From Candidatus Aminicenantes bacterium (GTDB lineage: Bacteria; Acidobacteriota; Aminicenantia; Aminicenantales; JAFGBC01): a stretch of 64,000 nt of DNA. How positions within the stretch are numbered: the first letter of the stretch is position 1; every line of letters starts with the position of its first letter. Where the stretch lies: positions 2,176,001-2,240,000 of the forward strand of contig OY969696.1 in assembly GCA_963702005.1 (NCBI GenBank), given 5' to 3'. The notes below the pieces were generated by a model that saw nothing but the letters and a program-made list of their open reading frames with translations, was not told where the DNA came from and ran no database searches. Positions 5,393 to 49,989 of this stretch are shown piece after piece. A program made the translations under genes and the position numbers.

Positions 5393-6091
5393 TCAGTTCT
5401 TGATCTCGACGTTTCCGAACACGGCCGTCGCCTTGAGATAAAGAGTGGCGGTGGTCCCAGACTCCTGCGGCGCGCTCCTCCGGTCGTGAATACCGCCCAG
5501 GATCGGGGTGCCGGCCAGGACGACTTTCCAGTTTTTAGGAACCCGGACTTCGACCCCGCCGAAAACGGCCGTCAGCTCGACCGTCGCCTGGTCCGCGCCC
5601 AGGGCGGCCGGCGTGAAGTCGAGCTCCACTGAACCGAACACGGCCGTCGCCTCCCCGCCCTTGAAGGCCTTGGATTCGATCCGTCGGCGCAGGGTGGTGA
5701 ACACGGCCGTGGCGTCCAGGTCGTCCTCCTTGATCTCCGGAAAACCACCTCCGCCCGAGCCGCGCAGAGCGGGCTTGAGGATGATCCACAATCCGAGGAC
5801 GATGATGGCCAGCGGCCAGACGTAGTGCCAGAAGTGATGGTCGAGGATGCCGAGCTCGAAAAGGAGGAAAACCGCCCCGAACAGGATGAAGAACATACCC
5901 GAGCCGACGTCGCGGAATCCGCTGTTGATGAGGATGGAGAATCCGATCAGGATGAAGATGACGGGCCAGTAATGCCCGATGATCTCGCCGAAATCCAGCT
6001 CTCCCATCTGGTCGAGCAGAAAAAGGAGGCCGAGGATGATGAGGAGCAGCCCCCAGAAGATCCGTCCCGATCCGTGGCGATGGTGGCTCAT
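5393..6091 (-). CDS. LiaF-like cell envelope stress membrane protein
   Basis: 4 TM helices (RIFWGLLLIILG..WPVIFI) plus C-terminal repeats ATAVFGSVELDF/TAVFGGVEVRVP; ATG at 6091 after GGAGG. Confidence 0.8.
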   Translation of the reverse strand: MSHHRHGSGRIFWGLLLIILGLLFLLDQMGELDFGEIIGHYWPVIFILIGFSILINSGFRDVGSGMFFILFGAVFLLFELGILDHHFWHYVWPLAIIVLGLWIILKPALRGSGGGGFPEIKEDDLDATAVFTTLRRRIESKAFKGGEATAVFGSVELDFTPAALGADQATVELTAVFGGVEVRVPKNWKVVLAGTPILGGIHDRRSAPQESGTTATLYLKATAVFGNVEIKN

Positions 6092-6176
6092 GGTGTCCCT
6101 CCCTGTCAAGGAATTTATATCACAACATCTATACGTATAGAAACTGCCGGGGTTGATCTCCGTCATCCCCCCGCCG

Positions 6177-6222
6177 AAAAGAAAAGAAAGGCCGGAGCGA
6201 AGAAGTCTTATGCTCCGGCCTT
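6177..6222 (-). terminator. Rho-independent terminator after the SDR gene
   Basis: 11-bp inverted repeat aaggccggagc (6188-6198)/gctccggcctt (6212-6222) followed on the minus strand by a T-rich tail. Confidence 0.65.
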
Positions 6223-6223
6223 A

Positions 6224-7015
6224 TTAGAGCCGGCGGATGTTCATGCCGCCGCTGACCTCGATGACGGCCCCCGTCGAGTAGGCGAACCCGCCCGTCGCCA
6301 ACCCGGCCACGGCCTTGGCGACGTCCTCGGGCTCCCCCCAGCGGCCTTGCGGGACGAAGCCTTCGGCGATCAGCCGGTCGTACTTCTCTTTGACGGGTTC
6401 GGTCATGTCGGTCCGGATGAGGCCGGGCCGCACTTCATAGACATTGATATTCCGCCCCGCCAGCCGGTCGGCGAACAGGGAGGCCGTTTGGCTCAGGGCG
6501 GCCTTGGATACGCAGTACTCGGGGCGCGAGGGAGACGAGACGACCGCCGAGATCGAGGTGATGAAGATGATGGAGAGCGGGCCGGTTTCCCCGGCTTCGC
6601 GCCGCTTGATCATCTCCCGGGCGATCCGCTGCGAGAGGAAGAAGGCGCCCCGGGCGTTGACGGCCATGACCCGGTCGTAGCTTTCGGGCGGCGTCTCGAG
6701 GAGGTCCGTTCGCCGCTCGGGCGCGATCCCCGCGTTGTTGACGAGGACGTCGATCCGTCCATAGGCGTCGAGGACCTGACCGACGAGGCGTTCCTGGTCG
6801 GCGAGCGACGAGATGTCGCCGGGCGCGGCAAAGAATCGGGCGCCCAGGCTTTCGACCCGCTCTTTGACCTCGAGTAATCCTCGGCTCCGATTGTCCGGCT
6901 TGGAGATGATATCGTTGGCCGCGATATCGTATCCATGGCGGGCGAGCTCGAGGACGATGGCGCGGCCGATGCCGCGTCCCGCTCCCGTCGTTAAAGCCAC
7001 CGGTTTGGAATTCAT
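6224..7015 (-). CDS. Short-chain dehydrogenase/reductase (3-ketoacyl-ACP reductase-like)
   Basis: TGAGRGIG, NNAG and YCVSK motifs. Confidence 0.92.
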   Translation of the reverse strand: MNSKPVALTTGAGRGIGRAIVLELARHGYDIAANDIISKPDNRSRGLLEVKERVESLGARFFAAPGDISSLADQERLVGQVLDAYGRIDVLVNNAGIAPERRTDLLETPPESYDRVMAVNARGAFFLSQRIAREMIKRREAGETGPLSIIFITSISAVVSSPSRPEYCVSKAALSQTASLFADRLAGRNINVYEVRPGLIRTDMTEPVKEKYDRLIAEGFVPQGRWGEPEDVAKAVAGLATGGFAYSTGAVIEVSGGMNIRRL

Positions 7016-9030
7016 CCTTCCTCCTTGATGATCCGGTCCGCCCGGAAGTCTTTCCAGACCTTCTCGAACCAGGGATCGGTCTTGGGCACGGGACGCGTCT
7101 CTCTCCAGGCCTTGCGGACGCGGCCCTTTTCGTCCAGGCCGATCTCAAGAATCCTGCCGCTCACGAAATCCCCGGACTCGCTCAGCTCGAACCGCCAGCG
7201 GTCCTCGATCGTCGGGCAGGGCTTTTCTCCCTTCGGCCCCGGGACAAGGTAGGAGCCGCGGCTCCGGCCCCCTTTCTCCAAGTATTCCCGGATGGCTTCG
7301 AGGTAGAGGGCGTGGGTCAGGGCCAGGTCCTTGAGGCGGAACACGGCCGCCAGCGCAGCGCGGTTCGGGACGGCCATCTCGTTTGCGACCCGCCCGACCA
7401 GGTCCCAGGCCTTCCGGCTTTCTCGGGAGACCTGGGTCGGGTCTCGGACCATGGCGCCGCAGGCCGACATCCGCTCTTGGAGCTCGGCCAGGGCCGTCCG
7501 AGGAGAAAGGGCGCGGCCGGGCTTTCGGGCTAAGGCCGATTCCGCGAAAGCAATCGTCTCCGAAATGCGGGGCGAGGCCAAGGCCAGGAAAGCTTTGAGC
7601 GGCGGCGGCCGCTTCCGATAGCGCCGAGCGACAAACTGGGCGGCCCGCAGGCTCCCGACCTGGCCGGCGTTAAGGGCCGAACCCCCCGGCCGGGTCACGC
7701 CGTGGCTGCCGTTGACCTCTCCGATCGGAAAAAAATGCCGGAGGTTCGATTCCCACCAAAGATTTCCCTTGAAGCCTCCGTTGTTGTGCTGGGCGCAGAC
7801 CCCGATCTCGAGAGGCTCGCGGCCGAGGTCGATGTCGTGCGCCCGAAACAGGTCGACCGCCGGCCGGTTCAGGCGACGAAGCCTGGCGATGGGCGTCGAC
7901 CGGAGGGCGTCCGACCTTTCGAGATAGGTCCGCGCCTCCTCGGCCAGAAGATCGAGGGAAAAATCCGCGAGCCTCCCGGCCCCCGACGGGTTCCGCGTGT
8001 AGTCGAGGAAAACCCGGCGCCCTTTTTCGATTCGCTCCCGATGGACGAGGAGGTCGATAAGCGAAGATCCGAAGGACGCGATCTTGCGCGGATCGAACGG
8101 CCACTCGTATCCTTTGCGAAAGATGGCCGAGGCGAGCGTCTCCATATCCGGGAAATGGTCGTTGAGGAACTCGCGCTCATCCCCGCCCCGACGGTCGGTC
8201 GAGACGTAGCGGGGAATTACCTGTTGGTAGCTTCCGGACAGGTTCCAGCGGAATTTGAGAGAGGCCATCCCGTACTGGGACTCCGTCAGGTTCTGGGCCA
8301 GGGCGCCCGCCTCGAAGGCCAGGCCGTGGGAGCCCGCTTGGCCGCGCGGATAGACCGAATCCCGATAGATCCCGGCGGGACCGCCCGTGGCCAGGACGAC
8401 GTTGACGGCGTTATAGAGGATGAGTCCGAAAGTCCGCGACGCGCTCTGGCCGAGGTCGATCGCGACGGCGCCGGCAACCCTCTTCTCCTTGCCTCGTCCG
8501 CAAGTCAGGAGCGCGACGGCCTGGTGCCGGTCGAAAACCCGGATTCTTTTTCGGTCCACTTCGCGAGCGAGAGCCTCCCACATCAGGCGCGAGGTCAGGG
8601 GGCCGGCCGACGTCGCCCGCTGCCTCGGGTCGTTGTCGGTCTTATAGCCGACATAGGCGCCGAAGGCGTCATGCGGGAAGGGAACGCCGAGCCGGACGAG
8701 ATGAAAGAAGGCCCGAAGCGAGTTCAAGGCTTCGCAGAGGGCGATATCGCCGTGCATGGACCCCCCGGCCGCCAGGTCCCGCGCCATCTCGAAAGGTGAA
8801 TCGGGGACGTCGCCGGCCAGCGAGAGCTTATAGTAAGTCTGCTTGTCCGATCCGGCGTTACGGGAGGTCCCTGCCGTCCAGCGCTCGGTCAGGATCGCGA
8901 TATCCCGCTGCCCTTCCTCGTGGAGGCCGACGGCCGCGTTGAGGGCGGCCGCGCCGCTCCCGATGATGAGGGTGTTGAGAGAATGAACCGGGAAGGTCCG
9001 GCCCCCGATCCTGACTCGTCCGGTTGTCAT
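7012..9030 (-). CDS. FAD-binding oxidoreductase, succinate dehydrogenase/fumarate reductase flavoprotein-like
   Basis: IIGSGAAAL, VVLATGG, QHNNGG, GEVNGSHG..RPGGSAL. Confidence 0.8.
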   Translation of the reverse strand: MTTGRVRIGGRTFPVHSLNTLIIGSGAAALNAAVGLHEEGQRDIAILTERWTAGTSRNAGSDKQTYYKLSLAGDVPDSPFEMARDLAAGGSMHGDIALCEALNSLRAFFHLVRLGVPFPHDAFGAYVGYKTDNDPRQRATSAGPLTSRLMWEALAREVDRKRIRVFDRHQAVALLTCGRGKEKRVAGAVAIDLGQSASRTFGLILYNAVNVVLATGGPAGIYRDSVYPRGQAGSHGLAFEAGALAQNLTESQYGMASLKFRWNLSGSYQQVIPRYVSTDRRGGDEREFLNDHFPDMETLASAIFRKGYEWPFDPRKIASFGSSLIDLLVHRERIEKGRRVFLDYTRNPSGAGRLADFSLDLLAEEARTYLERSDALRSTPIARLRRLNRPAVDLFRAHDIDLGREPLEIGVCAQHNNGGFKGNLWWESNLRHFFPIGEVNGSHGVTRPGGSALNAGQVGSLRAAQFVARRYRKRPPPLKAFLALASPRISETIAFAESALARKPGRALSPRTALAELQERMSACGAMVRDPTQVSRESRKAWDLVGRVANEMAVPNRAALAAVFRLKDLALTHALYLEAIREYLEKGGRSRGSYLVPGPKGEKPCPTIEDRWRFELSESGDFVSGRILEIGLDEKGRVRKAWRETRPVPKTDPWFEKVWKDFRADRIIKEEG

Positions 9031-37033: not shown

Positions 37034-38599
37034 TCACTTTCTGAAGACGATGTTGAACGGTTTCCAGACCTTGACCCGGGCTCCATCTTTGATGGCGGGT
37101 CTGAATTTCCACTGCCTCATGGATGTCTCGGCGGCTCGGTCGAAGCCGAAACTCCCCTTTATCCCCCTCAGGATGGTCGTTTGGGTGACATCTCCGCTTT
37201 CGGAGATCAGCGCGTTGACCGTCACGACGCCTTCGATGCCGATCCTTCGGGCCATCTCGGGATAGATCGGTTGGACCCTTTTGGTCTCGACCGGCTGAGT
37301 GTCAACCTGGTCCAGCGGAATAAGGTCGCCCTCCTGAGCCTTACGGACCACCGGCTGGGACGACTCGGCCAGAGCAGGTTCCGTCTTTTCCGGAGCCGCT
37401 TCCGCTGGCTGAGGCTGGTTCTGGATCTGGAGCGTGGGCGTCTGAGCCGGGAGGATGGGGGCCAGCGTGTCCGACGTCCTTCCCGGCTGGGGAGCGGCCG
37501 TCTGGCCTCTGGAGGACCCGGCCGGGGTCGCCTGGGGCTTGGCGGCCGGCTTGGACTCGGCAGCTTGGGGCTGGGTTTGCTGCTGGGAGCCGTTCGGATT
37601 GGACGCCGGCTGTTGAGCGGCGGCATTTGTTTCCGGCACGTTACCGGGGGGGTTCTCAGCGGGCGTTTGAATGCCGGACGGCGTCGCCTCAGTCTGCTGG
37701 GCCGTCTCGACCAGGCCGGTCTCGCTCTTCTTCGGCTTGAGGACGAACATGACGAGGAGCGCGATGACGACGAGGCCGGCGCCGATCCCGATGATGAGCC
37801 CCACCTTCGATTTCTTCTTCTCGGGTTCTTCAATATATCCACCGAACGGCACCGAACCGGGCCGCGCCTCGACGCGCTTTTCTTCATGCTCCCGGACAGC
37901 CGGGGGGACGGTTTCTTCGAGGGCGGGAGGCGTGAAGACGGGCATCTCCTTGGGCTTTTTGGCCTTTTCTTTGGGAAGCTCGGGCTTCTCTTCGTGGCCG
38001 CTCTTGAGACCAAAGTCGGCCAGGGCGCTTTGCAGGATCGTGTCGATTTCGGCCTCGACGTCGGTGGCCCCTTCGGGCGGCTCGACCTTGGCCGTCGAGT
38101 CCTTACCCCCGGGCATCAGCAGACCCCATTCTTCGCTGAAGTCCAGCGCCTTGTCCTTGGCCTGGGCCGGAGCCGGTTCGGCCGCTTCCGGTTCGGGCGG
38201 TGCGGCCTCCGCGGCCGGCTGTTTCTCTCCTTTAAGGAGGTCCCGGAAGACGGGCTGGAGATCTTCTTTTTTCCAGGGTTTCTCGAAAAAGGCGGAAGCC
38301 CCGTAGAACCGGATGGCTTCCGATTTGTAGACCGATTCCCGATAGATGCCGGTCACGATGATGACGGGCACTTTCTTGGCGGAGTCATAAGCGATCTTCT
38401 TGCAGAGCTCGAACCCATGGAGCTTGGGCAGCATGGCCTCCATGATGACGAGGTCGGGCCGTTCGGCCTTGAACTTCTCGAGGCCGGTGATTCCGTCGCT
38501 GGCGGTGACGACGTCGCAACCCTCGCTCTGCGCGAAATCGGACAGCGATTTTAAGGATTCCGCATCGTAATCGATGATCAGCACCTTTTTCTGGCTCAT
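37034..38599 (-). CDS. Response-regulator receiver + TM + TonB C-terminal fusion protein
   Basis: N-terminal receiver (VLIIDYD, LVIMEAMLP, EKP), acidic/Pro linker, TM, TonB_C (YPEMARRIGIEG..QWKFRPA). Confidence 0.85.
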   Translation of the reverse strand: MSQKKVLIIDYDAESLKSLSDFAQSEGCDVVTASDGITGLEKFKAERPDLVIMEAMLPKLHGFELCKKIAYDSAKKVPVIIVTGIYRESVYKSEAIRFYGASAFFEKPWKKEDLQPVFRDLLKGEKQPAAEAAPPEPEAAEPAPAQAKDKALDFSEEWGLLMPGGKDSTAKVEPPEGATDVEAEIDTILQSALADFGLKSGHEEKPELPKEKAKKPKEMPVFTPPALEETVPPAVREHEEKRVEARPGSVPFGGYIEEPEKKKSKVGLIIGIGAGLVVIALLVMFVLKPKKSETGLVETAQQTEATPSGIQTPAENPPGNVPETNAAAQQPASNPNGSQQQTQPQAAESKPAAKPQATPAGSSRGQTAAPQPGRTSDTLAPILPAQTPTLQIQNQPQPAEAAPEKTEPALAESSQPVVRKAQEGDLIPLDQVDTQPVETKRVQPIYPEMARRIGIEGVVTVNALISESGDVTQTTILRGIKGSFGFDRAAETSMRQWKFRPAIKDGARVKVWKPFNIVFRK

Positions 38600-38758
38600 G
38601 CGCTGCCCTTCCTTTATTCGAAATCCGGCTTTTCCCTCGCCGGGAGGGTTAGGGCCGAGGAGGTATCTGCCCGCAAGTCTATTTTCATCGAAGGCGGCTA
38701 AACGTCAATCACCCTTTGAGGTGATTCCCAGGATGAAATTCCCCTCTTGGGGGGGGTG

Positions 38759-40537
38759 TTAGGACCGTCCTCGCCGAAAGCGATGAAACGAGGAAGCGGA
38801 TTGGGGTGAGTGAGGGGTCTCGAACCCCCAACCTTTGTCTTTTCTGCTCCCCGGACGGGTGCCGGGGCCGAGAATGGGCCGGCCCGGGCGCGCGTCCGTG
38901 ATCTTTCCTCCGTCGACGACCAGCTCTCCGTTGACCGCTACATATTCGAAGCCCTGGCTATAGTGGTTAGGGTCGGCATAGGTTGAGCGCTCCTGAACCG
39001 TGTCGGGGTCAAAAGCTACGATGTCCGCCGCCATCCCCGGCCGCAGCAGGCCTCGGTCGCGAAGACGCATCCGAGAGGCTGGCAACGAAGTCATCTTGCG
39101 GACCGCCTCTTCGAGCGGGATCAGCTTGACCTCGCGCACGTAGTGGCCAAGGATGCGGGCGGTCGTCGCCCAGGCCCTCGGATGTGATTTCTCGCGGGAA
39201 AAAATTCCGTCCTCGGCCGAAGTCTCCGAGTCGGTGCACATGGAAACCAGCGGATGCCTGAGCGCCGCTCGCACGTCCTCCTCGCTCATTCCGAAGGTCA
39301 CGCGCATCGTGTTCCCGCGGTCGGCGAGCACGATGTCCATGACGGTGTCGAGAGGATCCTTACCTTCGTCCCGCGCGATCTCGGCGATCGTCTGGCCCTC
39401 ATATTTCTTGAGGTCAAGATTGAGGACGCTCGTGATGAGAATACGCGAGGCGCCCTCGGGCCAGTCGGGATTTTCCGCCAGGAATTCGCGTTTGGCACGG
39501 CCGCGCGTCGTCGGGTCGCGGAGTCGTGCCAGGAGCTGCTCGAGGCTCCCTTCCTGAAGCCATGAGGGTAGACTGTCCACGAGTCCATTCGAACTCGCCG
39601 TCCACGGATATTGGTCGGCGGAGACATCCAGGCCCTGCGCCCGCGCCTCCTCCAGCCTCCTGAGGACGGCAGGCATGAGGCCCCAGTTTTCCTTTCCGGA
39701 CGTTTTGAGGTGGTAGATCTCCGCTGGAATCGCCGCTTCACGTGCGATGCGGAACACCTCATCCAGGCTGGCGTCGATGCCGCCATTATTGTCGTTACCC
39801 TCGTCCCGCTGGTGTGTGATGTAGCTTCCACCGTAGGAAGCGGCGATGCGGGCGAGGGCGATGATCTCATCCGTCGAGGCGTAGCGGTCGGGCACGTAAA
39901 TGAGCGCAGTCGACAGCCCCAGGGCCCCTTCTTCCATGGCCCGGGCCACGGCCGCCTTCATGATCTCGAGCTCCTCCGGCCGGGCACGGCGGTTTTCTTT
40001 GCCGATGACGAGATTGCGGATGCCGCCGGCGCCCACAAATGTCCCCAAATTGACGGCGGACCGTGCCCGCATGAACGCTTCCCAGTAGCCGGCAAGCGTC
40101 GTCCAATCGGGAGTCAGCCCGTACCGGCTCCAGACATCCCGCCCTTCTTCGATCATCCGTTGGTTCAGCGGGCCGATCGACGAACCCTCGCCCGTGATCT
40201 CGGTCGTGATGCCCTGGGTGATCTTGCTCGCGACGCGATTATCGACAAGGATCCTGTATTCGGACTGCCCCATCATGTCAATGAATCCGGGGGCGATGAC
40301 GAGGTGCGAGGCGTCGATCCGGCGCCTGGCAGTGGCCTTGGCGAGATTCCCGATAGCGGCGATCCGGTCACCGACGACGCCGACGTCGGCCCGGAACCAG
40401 GGCGCGCCGGTCCCGTCGACCACGCGGCCGCCCGCGAAAATCAGATCATAGACGGGTCCCTGGCCAAGACAAAGGCCCGCCGTGAGAATGAGCCCGATGA
40501 CCGTTCCGCTAAAGATTCTTATTTTGGCAGCGCCCAA
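38759..40537 (-). CDS. N-acyl-D-amino-acid deacylase (amidohydrolase)
   Basis: VVDGTGAPW, APGFIDM, QGITTE, HPRAW, PGMAADIVAFD; likely TTG start at 40537 after GAGGAGG; C-terminus reads through the tRNA-His fragment. Confidence 0.88.
   Translation of the reverse strand: MGAAKIRIFSGTVIGLILTAGLCLGQGPVYDLIFAGGRVVDGTGAPWFRADVGVVGDRIAAIGNLAKATARRRIDASHLVIAPGFIDMMGQSEYRILVDNRVASKITQGITTEITGEGSSIGPLNQRMIEEGRDVWSRYGLTPDWTTLAGYWEAFMRARSAVNLGTFVGAGGIRNLVIGKENRRARPEELEIMKAAVARAMEEGALGLSTALIYVPDRYASTDEIIALARIAASYGGSYITHQRDEGNDNNGGIDASLDEVFRIAREAAIPAEIYHLKTSGKENWGLMPAVLRRLEEARAQGLDVSADQYPWTASSNGLVDSLPSWLQEGSLEQLLARLRDPTTRGRAKREFLAENPDWPEGASRILITSVLNLDLKKYEGQTIAEIARDEGKDPLDTVMDIVLADRGNTMRVTFGMSEEDVRAALRHPLVSMCTDSETSAEDGIFSREKSHPRAWATTARILGHYVREVKLIPLEEAVRKMTSLPASRMRLRDRGLLRPGMAADIVAFDPDTVQERSTYADPNHYSQGFEYVAVNGELVVDGGKITDARPGRPILGPGTRPGSRKDKGWGFETPHSPQSASSFHRFRRGRS
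38802..38835 (-). repeat. 34-bp copy of the tRNA-His 3' end (distal att site)
   Basis: tggggtgagtgaggggtctcgaacccccaacctt identical to 48851-48884. Confidence 0.92.
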
Positions 40538-40659
40538 TTCGCCCTCCTCTTCGGCACATCCAATGCCTGGGAATAACCCAGCCTCTTTCTCTAACCGGCA
40601 ACCTGCGGGTTTGGGTCGGGGTTCTCCTGATCCCACGCCGCTGAACCTGCGCCGCAGAA

Positions 40660-40689
40660 AGTATAGGTGCCGGCCTGGAGCGATGTCAA
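40660..40689 (-). promoter_or_regulatory. Sigma-70 promoter for the D-aminoacylase gene
   Basis: Minus strand TTGACA-18 bp-TATACT; supports the internal start. Confidence 0.55.
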
Positions 40690-40896
40690 CTTGACCTGCC
40701 TTTATAAGATTGGGCCGGATATGGAAGTGGTATAGAGCAAGAAATTCGGAACTTAGACCCATCCTTAAATCGGCCCCGATGCCTCGCTAGGTACTGCCCA
40801 TTGGTGGAGGGGCACTCAGGTCCCCTTCAGCCCGGCCAGCCACATCCTGGCATCTTCAGGCTCTGCCGTTTATCGAATGGGATTTCGTTTTGCCCT

Positions 40897-41211
40897 CTAG
40901 TGAGTTGAGCGCTCGACAATCGCTTCCACTACCTCCATTATGACGAGGAGGACGGCAATAAACCCAAAGACCACGGCCAATATCACGACGGGTGAGCGGT
41001 CCTTGAACTTAATTAAGCTTACGATCCCGGTAACGAAAGCGGCAATTCCGGATATCATCATGGATGTTCCCAGCATAATAAGGAGGGGGCTCCCGATTTT
41101 CATTCCTTTCAATCCCAATAAATTCCTCCTGTTAAGAACCGCAATAAGAAGCGCAACGAACACGGCCATCAATATGCCGGCCCATTTTCCGAGTTTTGTT
41201 TTCGGCATCAT
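40897..41211 (-). CDS. Small 3-TM membrane protein (cargo)
   Basis: MMPKTKLGKW then three hydrophobic helices; own TTGACT-17-TATCCT promoter at 41242-41270. Confidence 0.7.
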   Translation of the reverse strand: MMPKTKLGKWAGILMAVFVALLIAVLNRRNLLGLKGMKIGSPLLIMLGTSMMISGIAAFVTGIVSLIKFKDRSPVVILAVVFGFIAVLLVIMEVVEAIVERSTH

Positions 41212-41397
41212 TTTCCCCTTTCCCCTTTGTTTGCTGGTCAAAGGATAACGCCGTCGGGAAGGGAAGTCAATTAGTGGTGGCCTGTATGCTCAACGAGGCA
41301 TCACGCATACGAAGGCAGTCGGTCAGCACGGCACAATCAGCTGGGGGATGATGGGTCTGGCCTGCATAGGGGGCTTTCGGGGCTGCTGGACGCGGGC

Positions 41398-41522
41398 AGA
41401 CTCCGCCGCCGTGTCACACCGTTGTCACAAAAAGTGCTAAAACTCGTCTACTTCGGACTAAAGGTGCTTAAAAGGAAAACTTAGGAAACCTTAGATTATC
41501 AGGGAAAACGAGGGGATTAAGC
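41398..41522. repeat. att-arm-like element A (homologous to 43781-43905)
   Basis: agactccgcc, TGTCACA-N4-TGTCACA (41412-41429), ~10-bp periodic (C)TAA motifs, then tRNA fragment. Confidence 0.75.
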
Positions 41523-41565
41523 TGGCTGGGAAGCAAGGATTCGAACCTCCGACCTTTGGATCCGG
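41523..41565 (-). repeat. Chimeric tRNA 3' fragment (Arg-CCG anticodon/T-arm side + Gln-type acceptor end)
   Basis: Reverse complement ccggatccaaaggtcggaggttcgaatccttgcttcccagcca; 30 bp identical to 42130-42159. Confidence 0.8.
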
Positions 41566-41587
41566 GAGGGAGGCCGACGACCTATCC

Positions 41588-42046
41588 CTATTTCAGGATG
41601 TCCTCTTCCCCTCTCTGTGCCTTTGCCAATTGCAGGTACTTCTTCGCCGATATGATTGCCAGAATTGCGGCGATCAGGTTCGCTCCAATACAGACCAGCA
41701 TCAAGATCGCCTCTGCGCGGAATCCTTCATAGAACTGCAGAGAATAGACGGCAAGTTGGAACACCATGAAGTCATGTAGAAATAAGAGGAGCGCCCCAAG
41801 ATAAAGGGGGCCGCTGAGCATTCTGACGCCGCGCCGGCTCAGAATGACAACGGCCAGCAAAACAACGACCGCAACCAATTGGATTGCAAAAAATATCTTG
41901 GAAGAAGAATCGACGCGGTCGGCAATCGCCTCAGGATGCGCGGCCAGTCGAGGCACGAACAAGAGAGCCCACAAAGCGGCCACTCCGATTGCGATTGCGG
42001 TTGCGGTATAGACCATGCGCCGCGAAGTGGTTTCTTTGTCCATCAC
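41588..42046 (-). CDS. 4-TM membrane protein (cargo of the 594-bp unit)
   Basis: AAGGAGGT RBS, four hydrophobic helices. Confidence 0.72.
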   Translation of the reverse strand: MMDKETTSRRMVYTATAIAIGVAALWALLFVPRLAAHPEAIADRVDSSSKIFFAIQLVAVVVLLAVVILSRRGVRMLSGPLYLGALLLFLHDFMVFQLAVYSLQFYEGFRAEAILMLVCIGANLIAAILAIISAKKYLQLAKAQRGEEDILK

Positions 42047-42116
42047 AGATACCTCCTTCCAATGCTGATCACTAGTTTATATCAGAATGCTTGACAACAA
42101 AATAGGGGGGGGGATG

Positions 42117-42161
42117 TGGCGTGCCTGAGAGGATTCGAACCTCCGACCTTTGGATCCGGAG
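42117..42161 (-). repeat. 3' half of a tRNA-Arg(CCG) (att-like fragment)
   Basis: Reverse complement ctCCGga-tccaa-aggtc-ggaggTTCGAATcctct-caggcac-g-CCA; no 5' half present. Confidence 0.8.
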
Positions 42162-42204
42162 GCTCCCGGTGCTCTGGCACGAACGGGGATCCGGGCCCGG
42201 GCAT

Positions 42205-42483
42205 TCAGTTTGTCGGCTTGGTGTCCGGCAGGTCCTTGCCCGCTTTCTTCATGTATCTCCGGCCTTCCTCGTAGATGTCAAAATCCTCTTTCCTGTCCAG
42301 GCGCACCTTTTTCCTCTGTCCATCGTCGGTCTGGAAAATTACAAGATATGCGTGCTTGGAGAGAGTGCAGGTCTTCTTGGCCTCGACGGTCCCCGACCAT
42401 TCCTTGCGGCGATCCCTTTTTCTCCTAACCCAGGGTAAGAAAACGAGCCCGTCACCCAGGAGTTCAAGTATGAAATCAATCAT
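42205..42483 (-). CDS. Small hypothetical protein (cargo)
   Basis: AAGGAGG RBS; hydrophobic N-terminus, basic beta-rich C-terminus. Confidence 0.6.
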   Translation of the reverse strand: MIDFILELLGDGLVFLPWVRRKRDRRKEWSGTVEAKKTCTLSKHAYLVIFQTDDGQRKKVRLDRKEDFDIYEEGRRYMKKAGKDLPDTKPTN

Positions 42484-42560
42484 TTCGAACCCTCCTTCTC
42501 ATCCGCCCCTCACCAGTCTCGGGGCAGGGTCTCCGCCCGCCGGACCTACCTTCCCGTTGC

Positions 42561-43385
42561 TTATTTTAGCGTCAGCCCGATCCTCTTTTTATCTTTCGCC
42601 CAATAAATATAGAGCGCTTTGCCTTTTACATTGGCGAGAGGGAGAGTTCCCCAGTAGCGGCTGTCGTAGCTATTGTCGCGATTATCTCCGAGAACGAAAC
42701 AATGGCCAGCGGGCATCTTAAGCGGGCCGAAGTTGTCCCGGCTGTTGTCTATGACGATATCCTCGTGGACCTTGTATGATTCCTGGAGGGGTTCGTTACC
42801 GATAAAGACTTGCTTATTTTTTATTTCGACCGTTTCGCCTTCAAGAGCGATGACACGCATGAGAAATTGCTTTGTGGGATCTCGAGGATACTCGAAAACG
42901 ACTAAATCCCCCCGCTTAGGCGCCTGGTCGCTAAAGCCTTTTGGGTCCGTCATCAAGAAATCGTCTTTTTGAAGAGTCGGCATCATGGAGGCCGAAGGAA
43001 ACTTGTACGGTGAGACGCCTAGAGACGTCATCCAAATCCTTGCCGGAACGAAAATCTTCAAGCCGAGTGAAAGAATGATAAAGAACGCATAGACGAGAGG
43101 CGTTTGATATTTCCTAAGCCCCGTCTCCTTGGTCCGGCGCGCCTGGACAAAAGCGTGGATGATAGTGAACAACCAGAAAACAAAGACGGCTAGGACGAGC
43201 GCCATGAACCCGCTAAAATGGCGCGGCCAGCCGGCCAATCCCCAAAGAAAAGGTAGGGCGACAGAGAAGACAAAGAATATAATTCCAAGGACACCTTTCC
43301 CGTTATAGATCTGTCCGAGACCAGGAACGAGCAAAGACAGAAGGGCGGCGATGAACGGATTCCTTTTTTTCTTTTCGGCGGTCAT
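42561..43385 (-). CDS. Signal peptidase I paralogue with extra N-terminal TM domain (cargo)
   Basis: NPFIAALLSLLVPGLGQIYNG, PSASMMPTL, RGDLVVF, GDNRDNSYDSRYWG; the catalytic Lys position reads FLMRVI. Confidence 0.85.
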   Translation of the reverse strand: MTAEKKKRNPFIAALLSLLVPGLGQIYNGKGVLGIIFFVFSVALPFLWGLAGWPRHFSGFMALVLAVFVFWLFTIIHAFVQARRTKETGLRKYQTPLVYAFFIILSLGLKIFVPARIWMTSLGVSPYKFPSASMMPTLQKDDFLMTDPKGFSDQAPKRGDLVVFEYPRDPTKQFLMRVIALEGETVEIKNKQVFIGNEPLQESYKVHEDIVIDNSRDNFGPLKMPAGHCFVLGDNRDNSYDSRYWGTLPLANVKGKALYIYWAKDKKRIGLTLK

Positions 43386-43638
43386 GATTCCCTCCCTACG
43401 TTCGTTGATTTCTTGGTTTCTTTTCCCCCCGGGGACCCGCGAGCCCAGCTCATCGCAGCGTTCTCTATATCGCGCAGAAAGGAAAAGAAATTGACCTCTG
43501 GCACGGGATGGCTTTCCCTCCCATTAAGCCCGGGACCCCTCTCCCTCGGTACGAAAAGATGATATTCCCAAGCTTGATTCTATGTCAAGGACCAGTATGG
43601 AGAACGACTGAGTTATCATAAGTTCGGGGCCTTAAGAT

Positions 43639-43764
43639 TGACCTGCCACCCCTTAAACCGATCCAGGCATAATGAGAAAAACCTGGGAGAAAGGAGCCTT
43701 AATGGGCAGGGTATGGTTCACTCCGGAACAAATCATTGAAAAGCTCCGTGAGGCCGAAGTCCTC
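43639..43764 (+). mobile_element. Truncated IS3-family left end with orfA start
   Basis: TGACCTGCCACCCC end, AAGGAG RBS, ATG 43702 MGRVWFTPEQIIEKLREAEVL, then cut off. Confidence 0.7.
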
Positions 43765-43780
43765 AGATCTATCGAAATCT

Positions 43781-43905
43781 AGACTCCGCCCCATGTCACA
43801 AATATGTCACAGATTGTGCCTAAACTCGCTTAACTTAGCCTAACGGAACCTAAATAGGAAAAAGCCTAACTTTCTTATTCACCAGGGGAAAACAGGGAGA
43901 ACAGG
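43781..43905. repeat. att-arm-like element B (homologous to 41398-41522)
   Basis: agactccgcc, TGTCACA-N4-TGTCACA (43794-43811), periodic CTAA motifs. Confidence 0.75.
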
Positions 43906-43954
43906 TGGGGTGAGTGAGGGGTCTCGAACCCCCAACCTTCGGATCCACAGTCCG
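43906..43954 (-). repeat. 49-bp copy of the tRNA-His 3' end including the anticodon loop
   Basis: Identical to 48851-48899. Confidence 0.93.
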
Positions 43955-44456
43955 GGAAGTGCGCGCCCCATTCGGTTTTCAATCGACCGTGAACAAAAGG
44001 CTTCCCAGCCGGACGGGATCCTTCTCGTGCATCGCGGCACGCCGGTTGGATCTATTAAGTTATGATAAGGCTGGGAAAAGGAGGCAAGCCGTGAAGCGGA
44101 AAGGCGTCGTCTTCCTAGCTTCCTTCGATTTGTTGTTCATAGTGCTGAGTGTCTTGCTCTACGGGTCTTTCGCTCCCGCCGATCAAGTCGGCTCGCTGCT
44201 GGTAACAAACAACAGCGACCTGGTCAACAGGGATACGTCCAGCCCGGACACGCTGGTCGCCAACCCGGGGCCCGACGGCATCTCACTCCGGGAGGACATG
44301 CTCGCGGCCGCGGGCGCTACGACATCCCTCGCAATTAGCTTCACCCCGTCTTTGAGGGTGGACTGACCCCCAAAAATTGAACCACCCCGAGTGCTAAATA
44401 TTAGGATGCTATAATAGACATCATCAGCCGGGAGAAGGCCTTTAAAGGAGGCTCTG

Positions 44457-44768
44457 ATGGTGTCCGAGAAACACGGCAAACGGTACACGGCGCGGTTCAA
44501 GTTCCAGGTGGTGATGGAAATCTTAAGCGGGGCCAAGGCCATCGGACAGATCGCGCGGTCCTATGGCGTTCATCCGGTGACTCTCAGCCATTGGAAGAAA
44601 GAGTTCATCGAAAAAGGGCCGGAGATCTTCTCCCAGCACACCACGATCCAGGAGTACGAGAAACGGATCGAGGACTTGGAACGGTTAATCGGCCATAAAG
44701 AAGTGGAGATCGCGCTCCTAAAAAATTTCATGGCCGGGAGCTCACCCCGGGGGAAAAAGTTGAGCTGA
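44457..44768 (+). CDS. IS3 transposase OrfA
   Basis: HTH (IGQIARSYGVHPVTLSHWKK) plus leucine zipper; A6 slippery site at ~44720. Confidence 0.88.
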   Translation: MVSEKHGKRYTARFKFQVVMEILSGAKAIGQIARSYGVHPVTLSHWKKEFIEKGPEIFSQHTTIQEYEKRIEDLERLIGHKEVEIALLKNFMAGSSPRGKKLS

Positions 44769-44806
44769 CGCGGGCGTTTAAGGACGACTATGGGCTGAAC
44801 AGAGTC

Positions 44807-45637
44807 TTGGCGGCTCTGGGGCTTTCGAAAGGGACTTGGCATTATGCCCAGACGAGACCGAGTTATGAAGAGAAGCATGTCGGGCTGAGGAAACCGTTGC
44901 TCGAGATTGCCAGAACCCATCCGGAATACGGATACCGGAGGACGAGTGCCGAGCTCCGGGATCGAGGAATCCAGGTCAATCGGAAAGTCGTGGCGCGTCT
45001 GCATGGGACCTGGGATTTAGCCGTGATTCGACGGGTGAGGAAGCCGAAAACAAGCTCCCTGGCAAAGCTTCTTAAAGACACCGGGTCTAAGATCAATCTC
45101 GTGGCCGGCCTGACCGAGATCGATGATTTTGAGGTCGTCTATACGGATTTTACGGAGCTGCTCTACCGGAGAGGCCGGGCGAAAGCCCAGCTGATGCCGT
45201 TCGTGGATCATTCGAGCAAACTCGTTTTAGGCCACGCCCTGGGAGAGGCGGATAATACGGAGTTGGCCCTGGACGCCTGGCGCAAGGCGAAGACGACGCT
45301 CCGAAGATACGGACGGACAACGGAAGGGCTGATCGTTCATCATGATCAGGATGGTGTTTATTTAGGCCATGGCTGGCTCCGTGAGCTTGCCGTCCAGGAT
45401 AAAGTGCGCGTTTCCTATTCGGAAAACGGGGCCAAGGGCAACGTCCACATGGAGTCGTTCAATTCCCGATTCAAAGCCGAGAATCGGCTGTTGTTTTGGG
45501 AACAGGAAGATCTCCCTTCATTGAAAAAGGTTGTCGGGCAGCGGATCCGGTACTATAATCACGTTCGTCGACACTCGGCGTTGGGTTACCAATCGCCGAT
45601 TCGATATCTCAAAGAAAAGGGCCGAAGACCCGGCTGA
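44807..45637 (+). CDS. IS3 transposase OrfB (DDE), probably fused to OrfA by -1 frameshift
   Basis: YGYRR, TDFT, HHDQDG, ESFN, YN..RRHSALGY.SP. Confidence 0.9.
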   Translation: MAALGLSKGTWHYAQTRPSYEEKHVGLRKPLLEIARTHPEYGYRRTSAELRDRGIQVNRKVVARLHGTWDLAVIRRVRKPKTSSLAKLLKDTGSKINLVAGLTEIDDFEVVYTDFTELLYRRGRAKAQLMPFVDHSSKLVLGHALGEADNTELALDAWRKAKTTLRRYGRTTEGLIVHHDQDGVYLGHGWLRELAVQDKVRVSYSENGAKGNVHMESFNSRFKAENRLLFWEQEDLPSLKKVVGQRIRYYNHVRRHSALGYQSPIRYLKEKGRRPG

Positions 45638-45909
45638 GATGTTAGCGGAATTTAGCCCTCTAAGTGGTTCGAAAAATGGGGGTCATGTCCGGGCCCCAAG
45701 ATCTCAATCTCAGATAGGCTGCCGCGCATCACGGGGGGCAGCTTGAAGATCACGGGCGACATTAACGCCGACGGCACGTCGGACATCTCGCTCGACGGCG
45801 GGAAGAAAGCCGCGGAAGCGAATTCTAAGGATCTTTCAGAATCCAAACATCTCCCACTATCACCAACATGTCGCAAATTCGGTTGAAAAGCGCGTAAACT
45901 ACGTCATTG

Positions 45910-46030
45910 AAATCGATGCCTCTTTCGACGAGTTGGGCTGCAAACGTGTGCCGTAGGTCATGAAATCGAAGGCCCCTGATCCCAGCTCTACGTGTGGTTG
46001 CGTTGAAAGCCGTCTTGACATCAAGGGGCC
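45910..46030 (-). pseudogene. Tyrosine integrase remnant (box II region)
   Basis: [39 protein letters not shown]; no N-terminus and no catalytic Tyr region. Confidence 0.85.
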
Positions 46031-46043
46031 GCGGTTCTATCCT
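46015..46043 (+). promoter_or_regulatory. Sigma-70 promoter for the kinase gene
   Basis: TTGACA-17 bp-TATCCT, 28 bp before ATG 46072. Confidence 0.65.
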
Positions 46044-46071
46044 CTGGGCAGACAAGGACTGGGATGGGCGC

Positions 46072-48750
46072 ATGATCGGCCAGCTCGTTTCCCACTACCG
46101 GATCCTGGAGAAGCTCGGCGGCGGAGGCATGGGCGTCGTCTACAAGGCCGAAGACACCAGGCTCAAGCGCGCGGTCGCCCTGAAGTTCCTGCCCGAGGAG
46201 TCGCTCCAAGAGCCGCACGCCCTGGAGCGCTTCGAGCGGGAGGCCCAGGCCGCATCGGCCCTGAACCACCCGGGGATCTGCACCATTTTCGATATCGACC
46301 AACACCAGGGACGCCATTTCATCGCCATGGAGCTACTCGAGGGCCGGACCCTGAAGCGGCGCATCCTCGGCCAGCCGGTCCCGGCCGACGAGATCATCAA
46401 TCTAGCTATCCAGATCGCCGACGCCCTCGACGCCGCCCACGGCAAGGGCATCATCCATCGGGACATCAAGCCGGACAACATCTTCGTCACCGATCGCGGC
46501 CTAGCCAAGATCCTCGATTTCGGCCTGGCCAAAACGATGCCGCGAGAAACGGCTGCCGCGGGCTCGGCCGGCCCGACCGTCACCGCCCCGGAGCCGCTGA
46601 CCGGAGCCGGCGCGGCGGTCGGGACGGTGGCTTATATGTCCCCGGAGCAGGCCCGGGGCGAGCCGCTTGATGCCCGCACCGATCTTTTTTCCTTAGGCGT
46701 CGTGCTCTACGAAATGGCGACAGGTCGGCAGGCCTTTACTGGCTCCACCTCGGCCGTCATCTTCGACGCCATCCTTCATAAAGCCCCGACATCTCCCGTC
46801 CGGCTGAACCCGGATGTCCCGCCCGAGCTGGAGCGGATCATCAACAAGGCCCTGGAGAAAGAACGGCGGTTGCGCTACCAGAGCGCGGCCGAGATCCGGG
46901 CCGATCTCGAGCGGCTGAAACGGGATTCCACCTCGGCGCGCATAGCCGCCTTTGAAGACCAAGCGGCGCCATCGGCAGGCCCCATCGCCTCGGGGCGTAA
47001 GAGACGCCGATGGATCCCTTGGGCCGCGGGGGCAGTCGCCGTGCTCGTCTTAGCCGCGGCCGGCATGCTTCTCCTAATGGGGCATAAAAAGCCCTCCGAA
47101 ACAGCCGTTCCCCAAGTGGCCAACGCTGTCAAAGTGACCACCGCCATGGGTGCCAAGGACTGCCCAAGCTGGTCTCCGGACGGCCGCATGCTGGTCTACC
47201 AGTCCGACCAAGCAGGGAACTGGGACATCTGGGTCACCCAGGTCGGGACGAGCCAGGCCGTCAACCGGACGGCCGACAGCCCGGCCAACGAGATGAATCC
47301 CACCTGGTCGCCGGATGGTCAGTGGATCGCCTTCTTTTCGGACCGGACCGAACGCGGCTACTACGTCATGCCCGGGATCGGCGGCAAGGCCCATCGGATC
47401 GCCTCTTTGGAGTTTGCCGATGCCTATCCGACGGCGGCCCAATGGTCTCCGGACAGTACTCATCTGGCCTATGCCCTGCGCCAGCGCGTCGAACCCTACA
47501 TCGAGATCCTGACCGTGGCCAGTGGCCAATCCAAGAGGCTGACGCTTCCGAACCGGGCCCGCAACAATTCCATCATCGACATGAGCTGGTCGCCCGACGG
47601 GCGCTGGCTCGCCTATGCCCGGGCCATTAGCCCCATCGCAGCGACCGCCGAACTGTGGCTGACGCACACGACCGACGAGAAGAGCTTCCAGCTGACCGAC
47701 GGGACCTTGAGGGATACCAGCCCGACCTGGTCTCCGGACGGCCGCGAGCTCTATTTCATCTCCAATCGCGGCGGGACGCCTGACCTCTGGCGGTTCGCGA
47801 TTGGCGGCCAGGGACTGCCGGAGGGGCCGCCGCGGCAGATCACGGCCGGCATCGAGATGACCCATGCCGTCATAGCCCCGGGCGGACGGACGTTGGCCTA
47901 TTCCAAAGGCCGGACGGTCCGCAACGCGTTCCGGGCCCCCCTCCCGGCGGGCCGGCCGATCACCTGGACGGACGCCACCCAGCTGACCTTCGACGAAGCG
48001 GAGATCGAGTCCGTCGAAGTCTCAAAGGACGGACGGATCCTGGTCAGCTCGGACAGATCGGGAAACTGGGACATCTACCTGCTGTCCCCGGACTCGGGCG
48101 ATCTGCAACAACTGACGACCGATCCGGGAGTGGATGCGGGCCCGCGCTGGAAGCCCGACGGCAGCGAGATCGCGTTCTACTCGTCGAGAACGGGCCATCG
48201 GGAAATATGGCTCATGCCCGTGGGCGGCGGCCCGGCGCGGCAACTCACCCACGGCGAGGTCGAGAGTTTCAACCCGGCTTGGTCCCCCGACGGGAAGTCC
48301 ATCACCATGGAGAGCGGGGGCATTTTGATCCTCGACCCTCAAAGCCTCAAGGTGAGGAACTTAACCGACAAAGAAACCAATTGCCACCCGGACTGGTCCC
48401 CTGACGGGCGCTGGGTGGCCTTCAGTGAAAAGGGCAACCAAGGGTGGCAGATTTTTCGCATCGCAGCCTCCGGTGGGCTGGTCGAGCAGCTGACACGAGG
48501 AGGAGGCTGGACGCCCCGTTGGTCCCCCGACGGGAAGCGGATCTACATGATCGGCACCGGAAGCCGGAGGAATGCCATCTGGGCCCTATCACTCGAGAGC
48601 CGGGAGGAATGGCCGGTGACAGCATTGACCGGCCGGCGCGGCGCGCTGGGATATAACGGCCTAGCCGTCGACGGCCGGTTCCTCTATTTCACCTGGGAAG
48701 AGGTGCGCAGCGACATCTGGGTCGCCGATATCGTCCGGCCGGTGAAGTGA
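46072..48750 (+). CDS. Ser/Thr protein kinase with TM and TolB-like PD40 beta-propeller repeats (cargo)
   Basis: [28 protein letters not shown]; TM helix; repeated P.WSPDG. Confidence 0.93.
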
Positions 48751-48850
48751 CCGCCTGTCCGTTTTTCTTAACAAGAGTTCAATTAATCCAAAATGATTTG
48801 TATAAGGAGATTCTCTTATCAGGCTAACTGATTGAATATTGAGGGAACAG

Positions 48851-48928
48851 TGGGGTGAGTGAGGGGTCTCGAACCCCCAACCTTCGGATCCACAGTCCGA
48901 TGCTCTAACCAATTGAGCTACACTCACC
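48851..48928 (-). tRNA. tRNA-His(GTG)
   Basis: GGTGAGTGTAGCTCAATTGGTTAGAGCATCGGACTGTGGATCCGAAGGTTGGGGGTTCGAGACCCCTCACTCACCCCA: cloverleaf, G-1, encoded CCA. Confidence 0.96.
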
Positions 48929-49074
48929 GTCCCTTCGGAGGCGTATGATTTTCTCATCTCGTCGCCCCATTGTCAATACTGGCTCCAACTCGTTTTATAT
49001 CAATCAATTATGGTAAATTTCGGCCTCCCAAAAAAGGCTTAATACCCAAGTCCGGAAGGGCCGGCCCGGCTTGA

Positions 49075-49989
49075 CTATCGTTTCTGGCCCTCGATGAGGT
49101 CGAGGACGTCGGCCGAATCGCGCCAGCGGGGCCGGACCTTGACCTGGAGGTCGAGATAGATCCGGGTCTTGAGGATGTCCTCGATCTCCCGGCGGGCCTC
49201 GCTCCCGATCGCTTTGAGAAGCTGGGCGTGGCGGCCGATGACGATTTTGCGTTGGGAGTCCTTTTCGACGAGGATGCTTGCTTGGAGGTAGATGACGGGC
49301 GGGCGGGGGGCTTGTCCTTCCGGCGTCTCGGCGCTGCGTTCCTCGATCTGCTCGAGGAGGACGGCCGTCACGAAAGGCAGCTCCTGTTCGACGCGCGCGA
49401 GGAGTTTCTCGCGGATGATTTCGGCCAAGAAGAACCGTTGAGACTGGTCTGTGATCTCGTCGGCTGCATAAAGCCGGTCCGCTTCGGGGAGAGCGTGGTA
49501 GAGGCAGTCCTCGAGCCGGTCGAGGTTGATCCCCTTGAGGGCCGAGATGGGGATGATCTCCTTGAAGGCCAGGAGGTCCTTGTAGCGGTCGATGAGGGGG
49601 AGGAGCTTGTCTTTCCGGATCAGGTCGACCTTGTTGAGGAGGAGGAATAGGGGCTTGGAGACGTCCTTGAGGATCTCCAGGGCGTAGGCGTCCCCGTGGC
49701 CGAAAGGCTGGGCGGCGTCGACGAGAAGGCAGACCAGGTCCGCCGTCTGGAGGGAGGTGAAGACAAAGTTCATCATCCGGCGGTTGAGGCCGTGCAGGGG
49801 TTTGTGGATGCCGGGGTTGTCGATGAAGACGATCTGTCCCCGGTCGCCGGTCTTGATGCCCAGGATGCTGATGCGGGTCGTCTGGGGTTTATCCGAGACG
49901 ATGGCGACCTTGCGGCCCAGGATCCGGTTGAGGAGGGTCGACTTTCCCGCGTTGGGCCGGCCGACCAGGGCGACGGTCCCCGAGTTCAT
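49075..49989 (-). CDS. era: GTPase Era
   Basis: GRPNAGKST, KPQTTR, NKVD, KH domain. Confidence 0.96.
   Translation of the reverse strand: MNSGTVALVGRPNAGKSTLLNRILGRKVAIVSDKPQTTRISILGIKTGDRGQIVFIDNPGIHKPLHGLNRRMMNFVFTSLQTADLVCLLVDAAQPFGHGDAYALEILKDVSKPLFLLLNKVDLIRKDKLLPLIDRYKDLLAFKEIIPISALKGINLDRLEDCLYHALPEADRLYAADEITDQSQRFFLAEIIREKLLARVEQELPFVTAVLLEQIEERSAETPEGQAPRPPVIYLQASILVEKDSQRKIVIGRHAQLLKAIGSEARREIEDILKTRIYLDLQVKVRPRWRDSADVLDLIEGQKR

Follow-up and report, generated by a model that had tools for sequence, protein, structure and literature searches.

A hybrid of two tRNA-derived attachment-site fragments in a tRNA-anchored island array of Candidatus Aminicenantes

A 43-nt site on the minus strand of a Candidatus Aminicenantes chromosome is a hybrid of two attachment-site (att) fragments with different tRNA identities, tRNA-Arg(CCG) in its first part and tRNA-Gln(CTG) in its second, joined in the T-arm. 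The stretch of DNA analysed here (the window, 64,000 nucleotides) is C1:2176001-2240000 of the host genome, which forms one 4.31-Mb contig. The site occupies window positions 41523-41565, where the minus strand reads CCGGATCCAAAGGTCGGAGGTTCGAATCCTTGCTTCCCAGCCA, as quoted in an earlier note on this DNA. A BLAST comparison of the region with the genome shows that its Arg(CCG)-type part, running from the anticodon loop to the T-loop (41536-41565), is identical (30/30) to a pure Arg-type fragment, frag2, at 42130-42159. The Gln part, from the T-loop to the CCA (41523-41548), matches positions 49-74 of the host's own tRNA-Gln(CTG), c[2037846-2037919], at 26/26 positions including the CCA when all tRNAs are searched against the genome. 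The two identities overlap over 13 nt, AGGTTCGAATCCT, corresponding to tRNA positions 51-63, and the junction must fall there. The earlier note had located the exchange in just such a common T-arm sequence, correctly except for its length, given there as 12 nt; it was also right about the Gln-type acceptor end and about the incomplete T-stem, in which GGAGG and CCTTG form, as read from the sequence, three Watson-Crick pairs, one G-U pair and one G.G mismatch. A Gln-specific 14-mer occurs once in the window (at most one mismatch), against 0.02 occurrences expected from 100 shuffles.

The full 43 nt match no tRNA in the host genome, for which ARAGORN makes 52 tRNA calls, four of them dubious. 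Across window positions 38500-49200, ARAGORN and Rfam detect a tRNA-His only and do not call the hybrid, and no complementary 5' acceptor strand is present from which the cloverleaf of a genuine tRNA could be closed. A 32-nt sequence spanning the hybrid junction has one exact match in the species-representative genomes, an orthologous non-tRNA site in a same-genus metagenome-assembled genome (MAG), and it matches three metagenome contigs (L191, L192 and L193); ARAGORN predicts no tRNA gene at the MAG site or at the three metagenome sites. Thus, a single genuine tRNA covering all 43 nt, the outcome that the earlier note had named as contrary to its reading, was found neither in the host genome nor among the junction matches. 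Decay of a genuine tRNA gene and resemblance by chance are both excluded in practice, and we hold either to be extremely improbable: local alignment does reveal weak 5'-half traces upstream of the fragment, but the exact match of each side of the T-loop to a different tRNA, the G.G mismatch, the negative ARAGORN and Rfam searches, the chance expectation and the lack of any tRNA gene with the hybrid sequence in the collections searched all stand against them.

The hybrid lies in an array of islands headed by an intact tRNA-His. The features of this array are as follows.

48851-48927, minus strand: intact tRNA-His(GTG), the array head, called by ARAGORN and Rfam
45825-46073, minus strand: 82-aa ORF, a tyrosine integrase remnant and the sole integrase-like sequence in the array
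41523-43954, minus strand: shared 2.4-kb block, about 98-100% identical in the same-genus MAG, identity collapsing right after the hybrid CCA
43905-43954, minus strand: tRNA-His 3' half, 50 nt, 100% (50/50) identical to the gene, left edge of the shared block
43779-43868 (approximate), minus strand: His-associated copy of the E85 element, just downstream of the 50-nt His fragment
42561-43385, minus strand: signal peptidase I (S26), membrane segment at the N-terminus, block cargo
42205-42483, minus strand: ORF92, weak Pfam DUF7489 match, DNA 95% identical to genome 3704-4020
42117-42161, minus strand: frag2, pure Arg(CCG)-type 3' half from anticodon loop to CCA, 45 nt, with weak tRNA 5'-half traces upstream
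41588-42046, minus strand: ORF152, small membrane protein without a family match, sole cargo between the two Arg-type fragments
41523-41565, minus strand: hybrid att fragment (Arg part 41536-41565, Gln part 41523-41548, common 13 nt 41536-41548)
41481-41522, minus strand: spacer downstream of the hybrid, including TTTTCCCTGATAAT, collinear with spacers after tRNA-Gln(CTG) in relatives
41394-41480, minus strand: E85, about 85 bp, candidate att-site arm, directed into the next island
38802-38835, minus strand: terminal tRNA-His fragment, T-arm to CCA, 34 nt (34/34), inside the last codons of an amidohydrolase ORF (38759-40762)

Read in the tRNA sense, the order is tRNA-His, an island with a kinase and the integrase remnant, the His half with its E85, signal peptidase I, ORF92, frag2, ORF152, the hybrid, the spacer with E85, ORF114, the amidohydrolase and the 34-nt His fragment. 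His, Arg and Gln types therefore stand in one array, and the mixed tRNA-anchored arrays invoked by the earlier note are real; its observation that the His and Arg fragments are nearly identical over TCGAACC...GGATCC is likewise accurate (20/23 positions agree). Williams is said to have distinguished, in 2002, anticodon-loop and T-loop sublocations among the tRNA att sites of tyrosine integrases. With an intact tRNA-His at its head and same-orientation 3' copies at 43905-43954 and 38802-38835, the array has the layout of the anticodon-loop class, and tRNA identity from the anticodon loop or stem through to the 3' end is seen in the His 50-mer, frag2 and most of 66 Arg fragments in related loci. 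In the hybrid, the Arg part begins at the anticodon loop and the Gln part only at the T-loop, the 26 nt of Gln identity extending from the T-loop region to the CCA and ending there, as in a T-loop-class site.

Twelve matches to PF00589 are present in the genome, and the sole one in the array is a 44-position remnant (window 45894-46022). PF00589 and ORF profile searches found no intact integrase in the window array and none at all in the block 41523-43954, and no candidate integrase gene adjoins the hybrid. Neither ORF152 nor ORF114, nor a 385-aa ORF that follows E85 in a related genome (G025), has a Pfam, NCBIfam or PHROGs match. The interval from tRNA-His to the integrase remnant holds, on the other strand (45994-48750), a gene for a 918-aa Ser/Thr protein kinase fused to PD40/WD40-like beta-propeller repeats.

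The array itself follows the familiar pattern of tandem tRNA islands, in which newer insertions push older ones outward, with an intact tRNA-His at the head, exact 3' halves with anticodon-loop edges and an integrase remnant. It departs from this pattern in that several tRNA identities are mixed, the cargo islands are mostly integrase-less and carry the 85-bp arm, and one fragment is a small T-arm hybrid.

Two observations concern the state of the individual fragments. At the far end of the array, residues roughly 642-653 of the 667-aa amidohydrolase are encoded by the terminal His fragment, where tRNA identity begins only at position 44; this junction looks like a second illegitimate T-arm join. 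Upstream of conserved 3' halves, weak and mutated traces of tRNA 5' halves (acceptor strand and D-arm) are found at 41566-41600, 42162-42190 and genome 3609-3640, and the tRNA 3' half apparently stays whole as the remainder decays. We also considered a D-arm-less tRNA at frag2, where an upstream 10-mer pairs at 9/10 positions with the 3' acceptor strand. Local alignment resolves this region into scattered 5'-half traces, and ARAGORN and Rfam are negative; the traces were taken as decay, not as a gene.

Both parents of the hybrid can be traced in relatives. The host's own tRNA-Arg(CCG), at 2366448-2366523, has an acceptor beginning GCGGCTG, unlike the Arg type of the hybrid, which belongs to a tRNA-Arg(CCG) with acceptor GTGCCTG that is common in other genomes of the order and of which the host has fragments only. 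The Arg-CCG body recognised in the earlier note is thus the same as that at 42130-42159 but of a type foreign to the host genome. The Arg(CCG)-type half (42117-42161) is found again at genome 3568-3608 and 4538-4581; a further copy, at 193435-193464, begins at the T-stem. A 27-mer of this type (GGATCC...AATCC) has 102 matching stretches in the species-representative genomes, nearly all in Aminicenantes or Aminicenantales MAGs. The 111 occurrences of the Arg 5' part (A-part) in our stored loci comprise 42 full tRNA-Arg(CCG) genes (GTGCCTGTAGCTCAG...), 66 fragments and three at locus edges. The Arg pieces in the host derive from elements that were shaped in hosts carrying the GTGCCTG-type tRNA.

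The layout of the left parent is preserved in locus L103, which has, in this order, a full tRNA-Arg(CCG), an ORF152 homologue (63.6% amino acid identity), a homologous spacer CCTCCCTCC and a pure Arg half; in G024 an ORF152 homologue lies between a tRNA-Arg(TCG) and an Arg(TCG) half. These two layouts mark ORF152 as a mini-island that originally had a pure Arg half as its distal site. The right parent is represented in G025 by a full tRNA-Gln(CTG), a related spacer, E85 and a 6.3-kb integrase-less island (an AbiE pair and DUF805), followed by a 44-nt Gln repeat and another related spacer. A related spacer with E85 also follows tRNA-Gln in G011, G093, G097, G106, G112 and G125; an alignment (A1) of 12 rows also bears on the spacer and E85, its wrong-strand rows G106_x and G093_x being left aside. 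With both parental layouts found in relatives, the hybrid is an Arg-type attR joined to a Gln-type proximal junction.

The order of the two small ORFs is itself variable: genome 3568-4581 reads half, ORF152, ORF92, half, and window 41588-42483 reads ORF92, half, ORF152, hybrid. DNA identity between the window copies and those at the genome start is 95% for ORF92 and 71% for ORF152. Downstream of the S26-ORF92 pair, G028 has an Arg half and G011 a Lys(CTT) half.

The hybrid does not travel alone. The same-genus MAG (Candidatus Aminicenantes PFL55; G001) carries the shared block at C192:8216-10775, and from window position 43954 to 41524 the two copies agree at 48-50 of 50 positions in most 50-nt bins, with few divergent patches. 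Beyond the hybrid, agreement falls to 36/50, 45/50 and 30/50 and is then lost, so that the block ends exactly at the hybrid. Core flanks on the same MAG contig are 81-83% identical to host genome 2571213-2579776, and in the MAG the block belongs to a tRNA-Leu(CAA) array, flanked by a 5' fragment of tRNA-Leu(CAA) on one side and the complete tRNA-Leu on the other. Because the block is about 98-100% identical against 81-83% for the core and occupies a different tRNA array, the hybrid-bearing block has moved, or been exchanged, recently between lineages. The hybrid was not formed in place, and the join predates the window locus. The earlier note had invoked strand exchange between units from different tRNA loci; att fragments of unlike identity have indeed been joined, but not at the window locus between host tRNA loci.

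We then counted such joins in relatives, using censuses seeded with Arg and Gln patterns and one genome per species, with crossover positions read from fragment edges. An Arg A-part continues as Gln at 1/111 sites. Hybrids make up 3/103 fragment rows, which represent two independent loci, in the loci then stored plus the host genome, where overlapping loci may count a few rows twice. About 20 of the 3' fragments in the host genome are credible, and one of these is a hybrid (46 rows were listed, the others being chance-like 13-mers with two mismatches). A Gln 25-mer occurs at 55 places in a 201-genome sample of the order, and the 42 places inspected (the remaining 13 lie in single-copy genomes) are 33 full genes, seven pure Gln fragments and two hybrids, those of the host and of G001. 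The seven pure fragments have edges at or before the anticodon loop, and no T-loop-only Gln fragment is among the 42. For most of the 66 Arg fragments the edge is found 1-9 nt upstream of GGATCC, at the anticodon loop or stem; each of three fragments in the host Val array shows co-variation between its T-stem halves. Together, the Arg edges, the Gln edges and the Val co-variation place the usual crossover of this family outside the T-arm.

We also considered whether hybrids form at the anticodon loop itself and tabulated the 9 nt upstream of GGATCC in 72 Arg fragments. None has the His loop (CTGT); the variants are one CTCT and two CTTC, each one base from CTCC, and the tabulation gives no evidence of unlike-site crossover at this position. 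Fragments that start at the T-stem do exist, namely at genome 193457 (Arg), genome 3861709 (Ala) and window 38802-38835 (His), with four further Arg examples in relatives (L079, L166, L173 and L174).

Although rare, T-arm hybrids recur. In L068, the sequence after an inverted E85 is an Arg A-part running into the T-loop, T-stem and acceptor end of a tRNA-Thr(CGT) (about 6040-6093). The junction lies inside a common stretch of 15 nt, AGGTCGGAGGTTCGA, and Arg and Thr have different bases at two positions of the T-loop; about 1.9 kb upstream of this hybrid stands one pure half of each type, Thr and Arg, with 31 nt between them. Of the contigs with the Arg/Gln junction, L191 and L192 are G001-like, and L193 (1579 bp) has a different left flank, with an unrelated ORF and a normal CTCC loop. 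The right flank of L193 is collinear from the T-loop on with tRNA-Gln loci (87.7% over 773 nt with G181, 90.7% over 835 nt with G197), and this homology extends to the contig end, about 960 nt. L193 is thus an independent Arg/Gln hybrid, situated where the terminal fragment of a tRNA-Gln array should sit, and T-arm hybrids have arisen at least three times (window/G001, L193 and L068). In both kinds the junction falls within the longest stretch of identity between the two partners, which measures 13 nt for Arg/Gln and 15 nt for Arg/Thr. The reciprocal junction, Gln 5' part with Arg 3' part, has no exact match in the species-representative genomes, and none of the 112 Arg B-part sites (0/112) has a non-Arg A-part. 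All three independent hybrids therefore combine an Arg(CCG) 5' part with the 3' part of another tRNA (3 vs 0). None of the explanations that we tried accounts for this polarity bias, in which the numbers are small and the searches were seeded with Arg and Gln.

We propose, with about even chances of being right, that the hybrid is a recombination scar between unlike att fragments in tandem arrays, its T-arm join produced by short-homology exchange or deletion. The left part (ORF152, spacer and Arg sequence to the T-stem) would be the attR of a mini-island that once lay behind a tRNA-Arg(CCG). The right part (Gln from the T-loop to the CCA, spacer and E85) would be the proximal junction of a tRNA-Gln-type element. 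The two would have been joined within their only long common stretch, the 13 nt given above, by exchange or deletion within one tandem array, involving two fragments of unlike tRNA identity but equal orientation and driven by short T-arm identity instead of the normal anticodon-loop crossover of the family's integrase. The hybrid itself is carried at the end of the 2.4-kb block, which has moved between lineages. We favour short homology because the join lies off the normal crossover, always falls in the longest identity block, is rare and comes without a reciprocal product; the absent product is what a deletion that loses a reciprocal circle predicts. The arrangement that should precede such a deletion (ORF152, Arg half, X, Gln half, E85) was not found in the arrays examined. 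Thirteen bases is short for RecA-dependent recombination. The uniform polarity, which simple homology does not predict, counts against the short-homology reading, as do the T-stem-start fragments, which are what T-loop-type integrases leave.

A T-loop-class tyrosine integrase that is normally specific for the Arg(CCG) T-arm but acted on a non-cognate Gln or Thr T-arm is a serious rival origin, though to our minds a less probable one. Either off-target integration or a reaction resembling excision, with two unlike sites of one array as its substrates, could have been the route. Arg and Gln share the 7-nt loop TTCGAAT and the same inner stem pairs, which would suit such an enzyme, as would the recurrence in L193 (Arg/Gln) and L068 (Arg/Thr), the constant polarity and the T-stem-bounded fragments in the host and relatives, which fit T-loop-type sites as these are generally described. 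One hybrid core is joined to three right flanks (the host, G001 and L193) and two left flanks, implying repeated joins or later exchanges at exactly the hybrid site, and such a hot spot suits an enzyme better than rare 13-bp homology events. A tblastn search of the loci then stored with the host's 11 integrase ORFs gave matches in five loci (L058, L061, L083, L089 and L103); integrases stand directly beside Arg(CCG) sites in L103 (1399-2421, upstream of the tRNA) and L089, and in none of the five does one adjoin a hybrid. A candidate integrase of the host itself lies at genome 2734824-2736146. Against the integrase, no intact gene is present in the window array and most islands of the family are without one, the reciprocal junction expected from integration was not found, and hybrids are rare. 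The two T-loop differences of the Arg/Thr pair also weigh against it, since T-loop heterology normally hinders strand exchange. Lastly, in the portion of the Thermococcus study considered here, the enzyme failed to recombine tRNA-Leu with tRNA-Thr in vitro despite genomic signs of such events (PMC5495485). The array, lacking an intact integrase, gives no support to the relaxed-specificity recombinase suggested by the earlier note. On sequence evidence, the homologous shuffling that the note offered as its other reading and an off-target integrase stand level, and short-homology exchange and integrase action cannot be told apart.

The position of the L193 hybrid, exactly at the expected terminal attR of an array at a tRNA-Gln locus, raises the question of whether the hybrid is a working att core of an element lineage that switched its target from tRNA-Arg(CCG) to tRNA-Gln(CTG). 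The attP of such an element would carry old Arg sequence upstream and Gln sequence from T-loop to CCA downstream, so that integration would restore the tRNA-Gln and leave the hybrid as attR, and the 26-nt Gln part does have the shape of a T-loop-class identity block. We regard this as quite unlikely: neither the window nor G001 has a Gln-type attL or tRNA-Gln upstream, where a pure Arg half and a His half are found instead; an element with the hybrid core was never seen together with an integrase; and the L193 contig spans only 1579 bp.

Similar phenomena are known elsewhere. CIMEs and their accretion in streptococci involve integrase-less, att-flanked cargo in tandem with related elements, which could move in trans. 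They resemble the present array in having integrase-less cargo between att sites in tandem, and differ in that the att sites of their arrays are all of one kind and that cross-target hybrid cores are not known from them. Integron cassette arrays string together short cargo units that have no promoter and close with a recombination site, and their order varies between genomes, as that of ORF92 and ORF152 does between the window and genome 3568-4581; unlike them, the arrays described here have no IntI, attI or attC-type imperfect palindromes, and their sites are tRNA halves. We can imagine, as an improbable extension, that in Aminicenantia the tRNA 3' halves and the E85 arm are the portable sites of an integron-like cassette system, with integrase-less cargo moved in trans by a recombinase able to exchange strands in the nearly universal T-loop. 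If so, cassettes could hop from the array of one tRNA to that of another, and both kinds of hybrid, Arg/Gln and Arg/Thr, would be footprints of this traffic.

Prochlorococcus tycheposons and cargo islands, in the part of their description considered here, have partial-tRNA flanks, repeated integration at one tRNA, degenerate elements with fragmented integrases and further partial tRNAs scattered about (bioRxiv 10.1101/2020.12.28.424599). The partial tRNAs flanking cargo, the repeated integration and the degenerate integrases are met again in the window array. The present system belongs to another phylum and has a conserved 85-bp arm, and hybrids between different tRNAs do not feature in that part of the tycheposon description. 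Going by the same part, no tycheposon hallmark genes were seen among the ORFs scanned with general profiles, none of which resembles a helicase or primase. In Thermococcales, recombination endpoints were placed in unlike tRNA pairs (Leu/Thr and Leu/Gly), with the tRNA-targeting pTN3 integrase suspected, according to the portion of that paper considered here (PMC5495485). There too, recombination between unlike tRNAs was deduced from genome comparison; the archaeal events are large chromosomal inversions between whole tRNA genes, in contrast to the small direct-orientation join of att fragments in an island array seen here. A non-exhaustive literature search found no paper on att hybrids between different tRNA species.

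tRNA islands are usually viewed as separate stacks, one per tRNA, each with its own integrase. Given the mixed stack, the movement of the block between His and Leu arrays and the recurrent T-arm hybrids, the conserved T-loop, or an enzyme using it, links supposedly independent stacks, and the hybrid shows that arrays of cassettes behind unlike tRNAs do at times exchange DNA by recombination. Such links offer one route for the spread of integrase-less cargo and, possibly, for a change of target tRNA. They also carry a warning for annotation, as one end of a partial tRNA is not enough in such genomes to tell which tRNA it came from.

The E85 element is a candidate arm site for an integrase or a regulator. 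It consists of two TTTA(A/G)GCAC repeats about 32 nt apart and two TGTGACA motifs 11 nt apart, followed by GGGGAGAGGTCTGCC, and has no Rfam match. Further copies are found at genome 347294-347378, 1790019-1790090, 1792136-1792209 and 3143191-3143274. E85 lies about 40 nt downstream of the 3' ends of tRNAs or fragments of Asp, Glu, His and Gln type; inverted copies occur in relatives, upstream of Arg(CCG) fragments, and E85 is always directed into the island.

Other arrays of the genome are anchored on the tRNA 5' half, which is the less usual polarity and is also that of the Leu array holding the hybrid block in G001. Copies of the tRNA-Arg(TCG) 5' half (positions 1-41) are present at 3081669-3081709, 3146361-3146401, 3150276-3150316, 3153648-3153688, 1792570-1792609 and 2367913-2367952, and a tRNA-Leu(CAA) 5' piece lies at 2583063-2583094, 1.9 kb upstream of the gene. 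Mixed arrays combine a His half with an Arg(TCG) 5' half behind tRNA-Glu(CTC) (1789899-1794060), an Asp half with an Arg(TCG) 5' half behind tRNA-Lys(CTT) (2367614-2369846), and Glu, Ala and Gly pieces among Arg(TCG) 5' halves (3143121-3153688). The ARAGORN calls at 2329984, 3623827, 3717067 and 4292938 (Pro-cgg, Val-gac, Val-cac and Arg-tct) lack a T-loop motif and are likely false, and the 'tRNA-Glu' call at genome 1792026 is a 3' fragment. In relatives, integrase-less islands between tRNA halves occur at L023 (G025:C12) 548-6852 and L019 (G005:C17) 183-8068; the cargo of such islands includes AbiEii/AbiEi with DUF805, a MarR-HlyD-MFS-OEP efflux operon and, in a third island, HEAT-repeat proteins.
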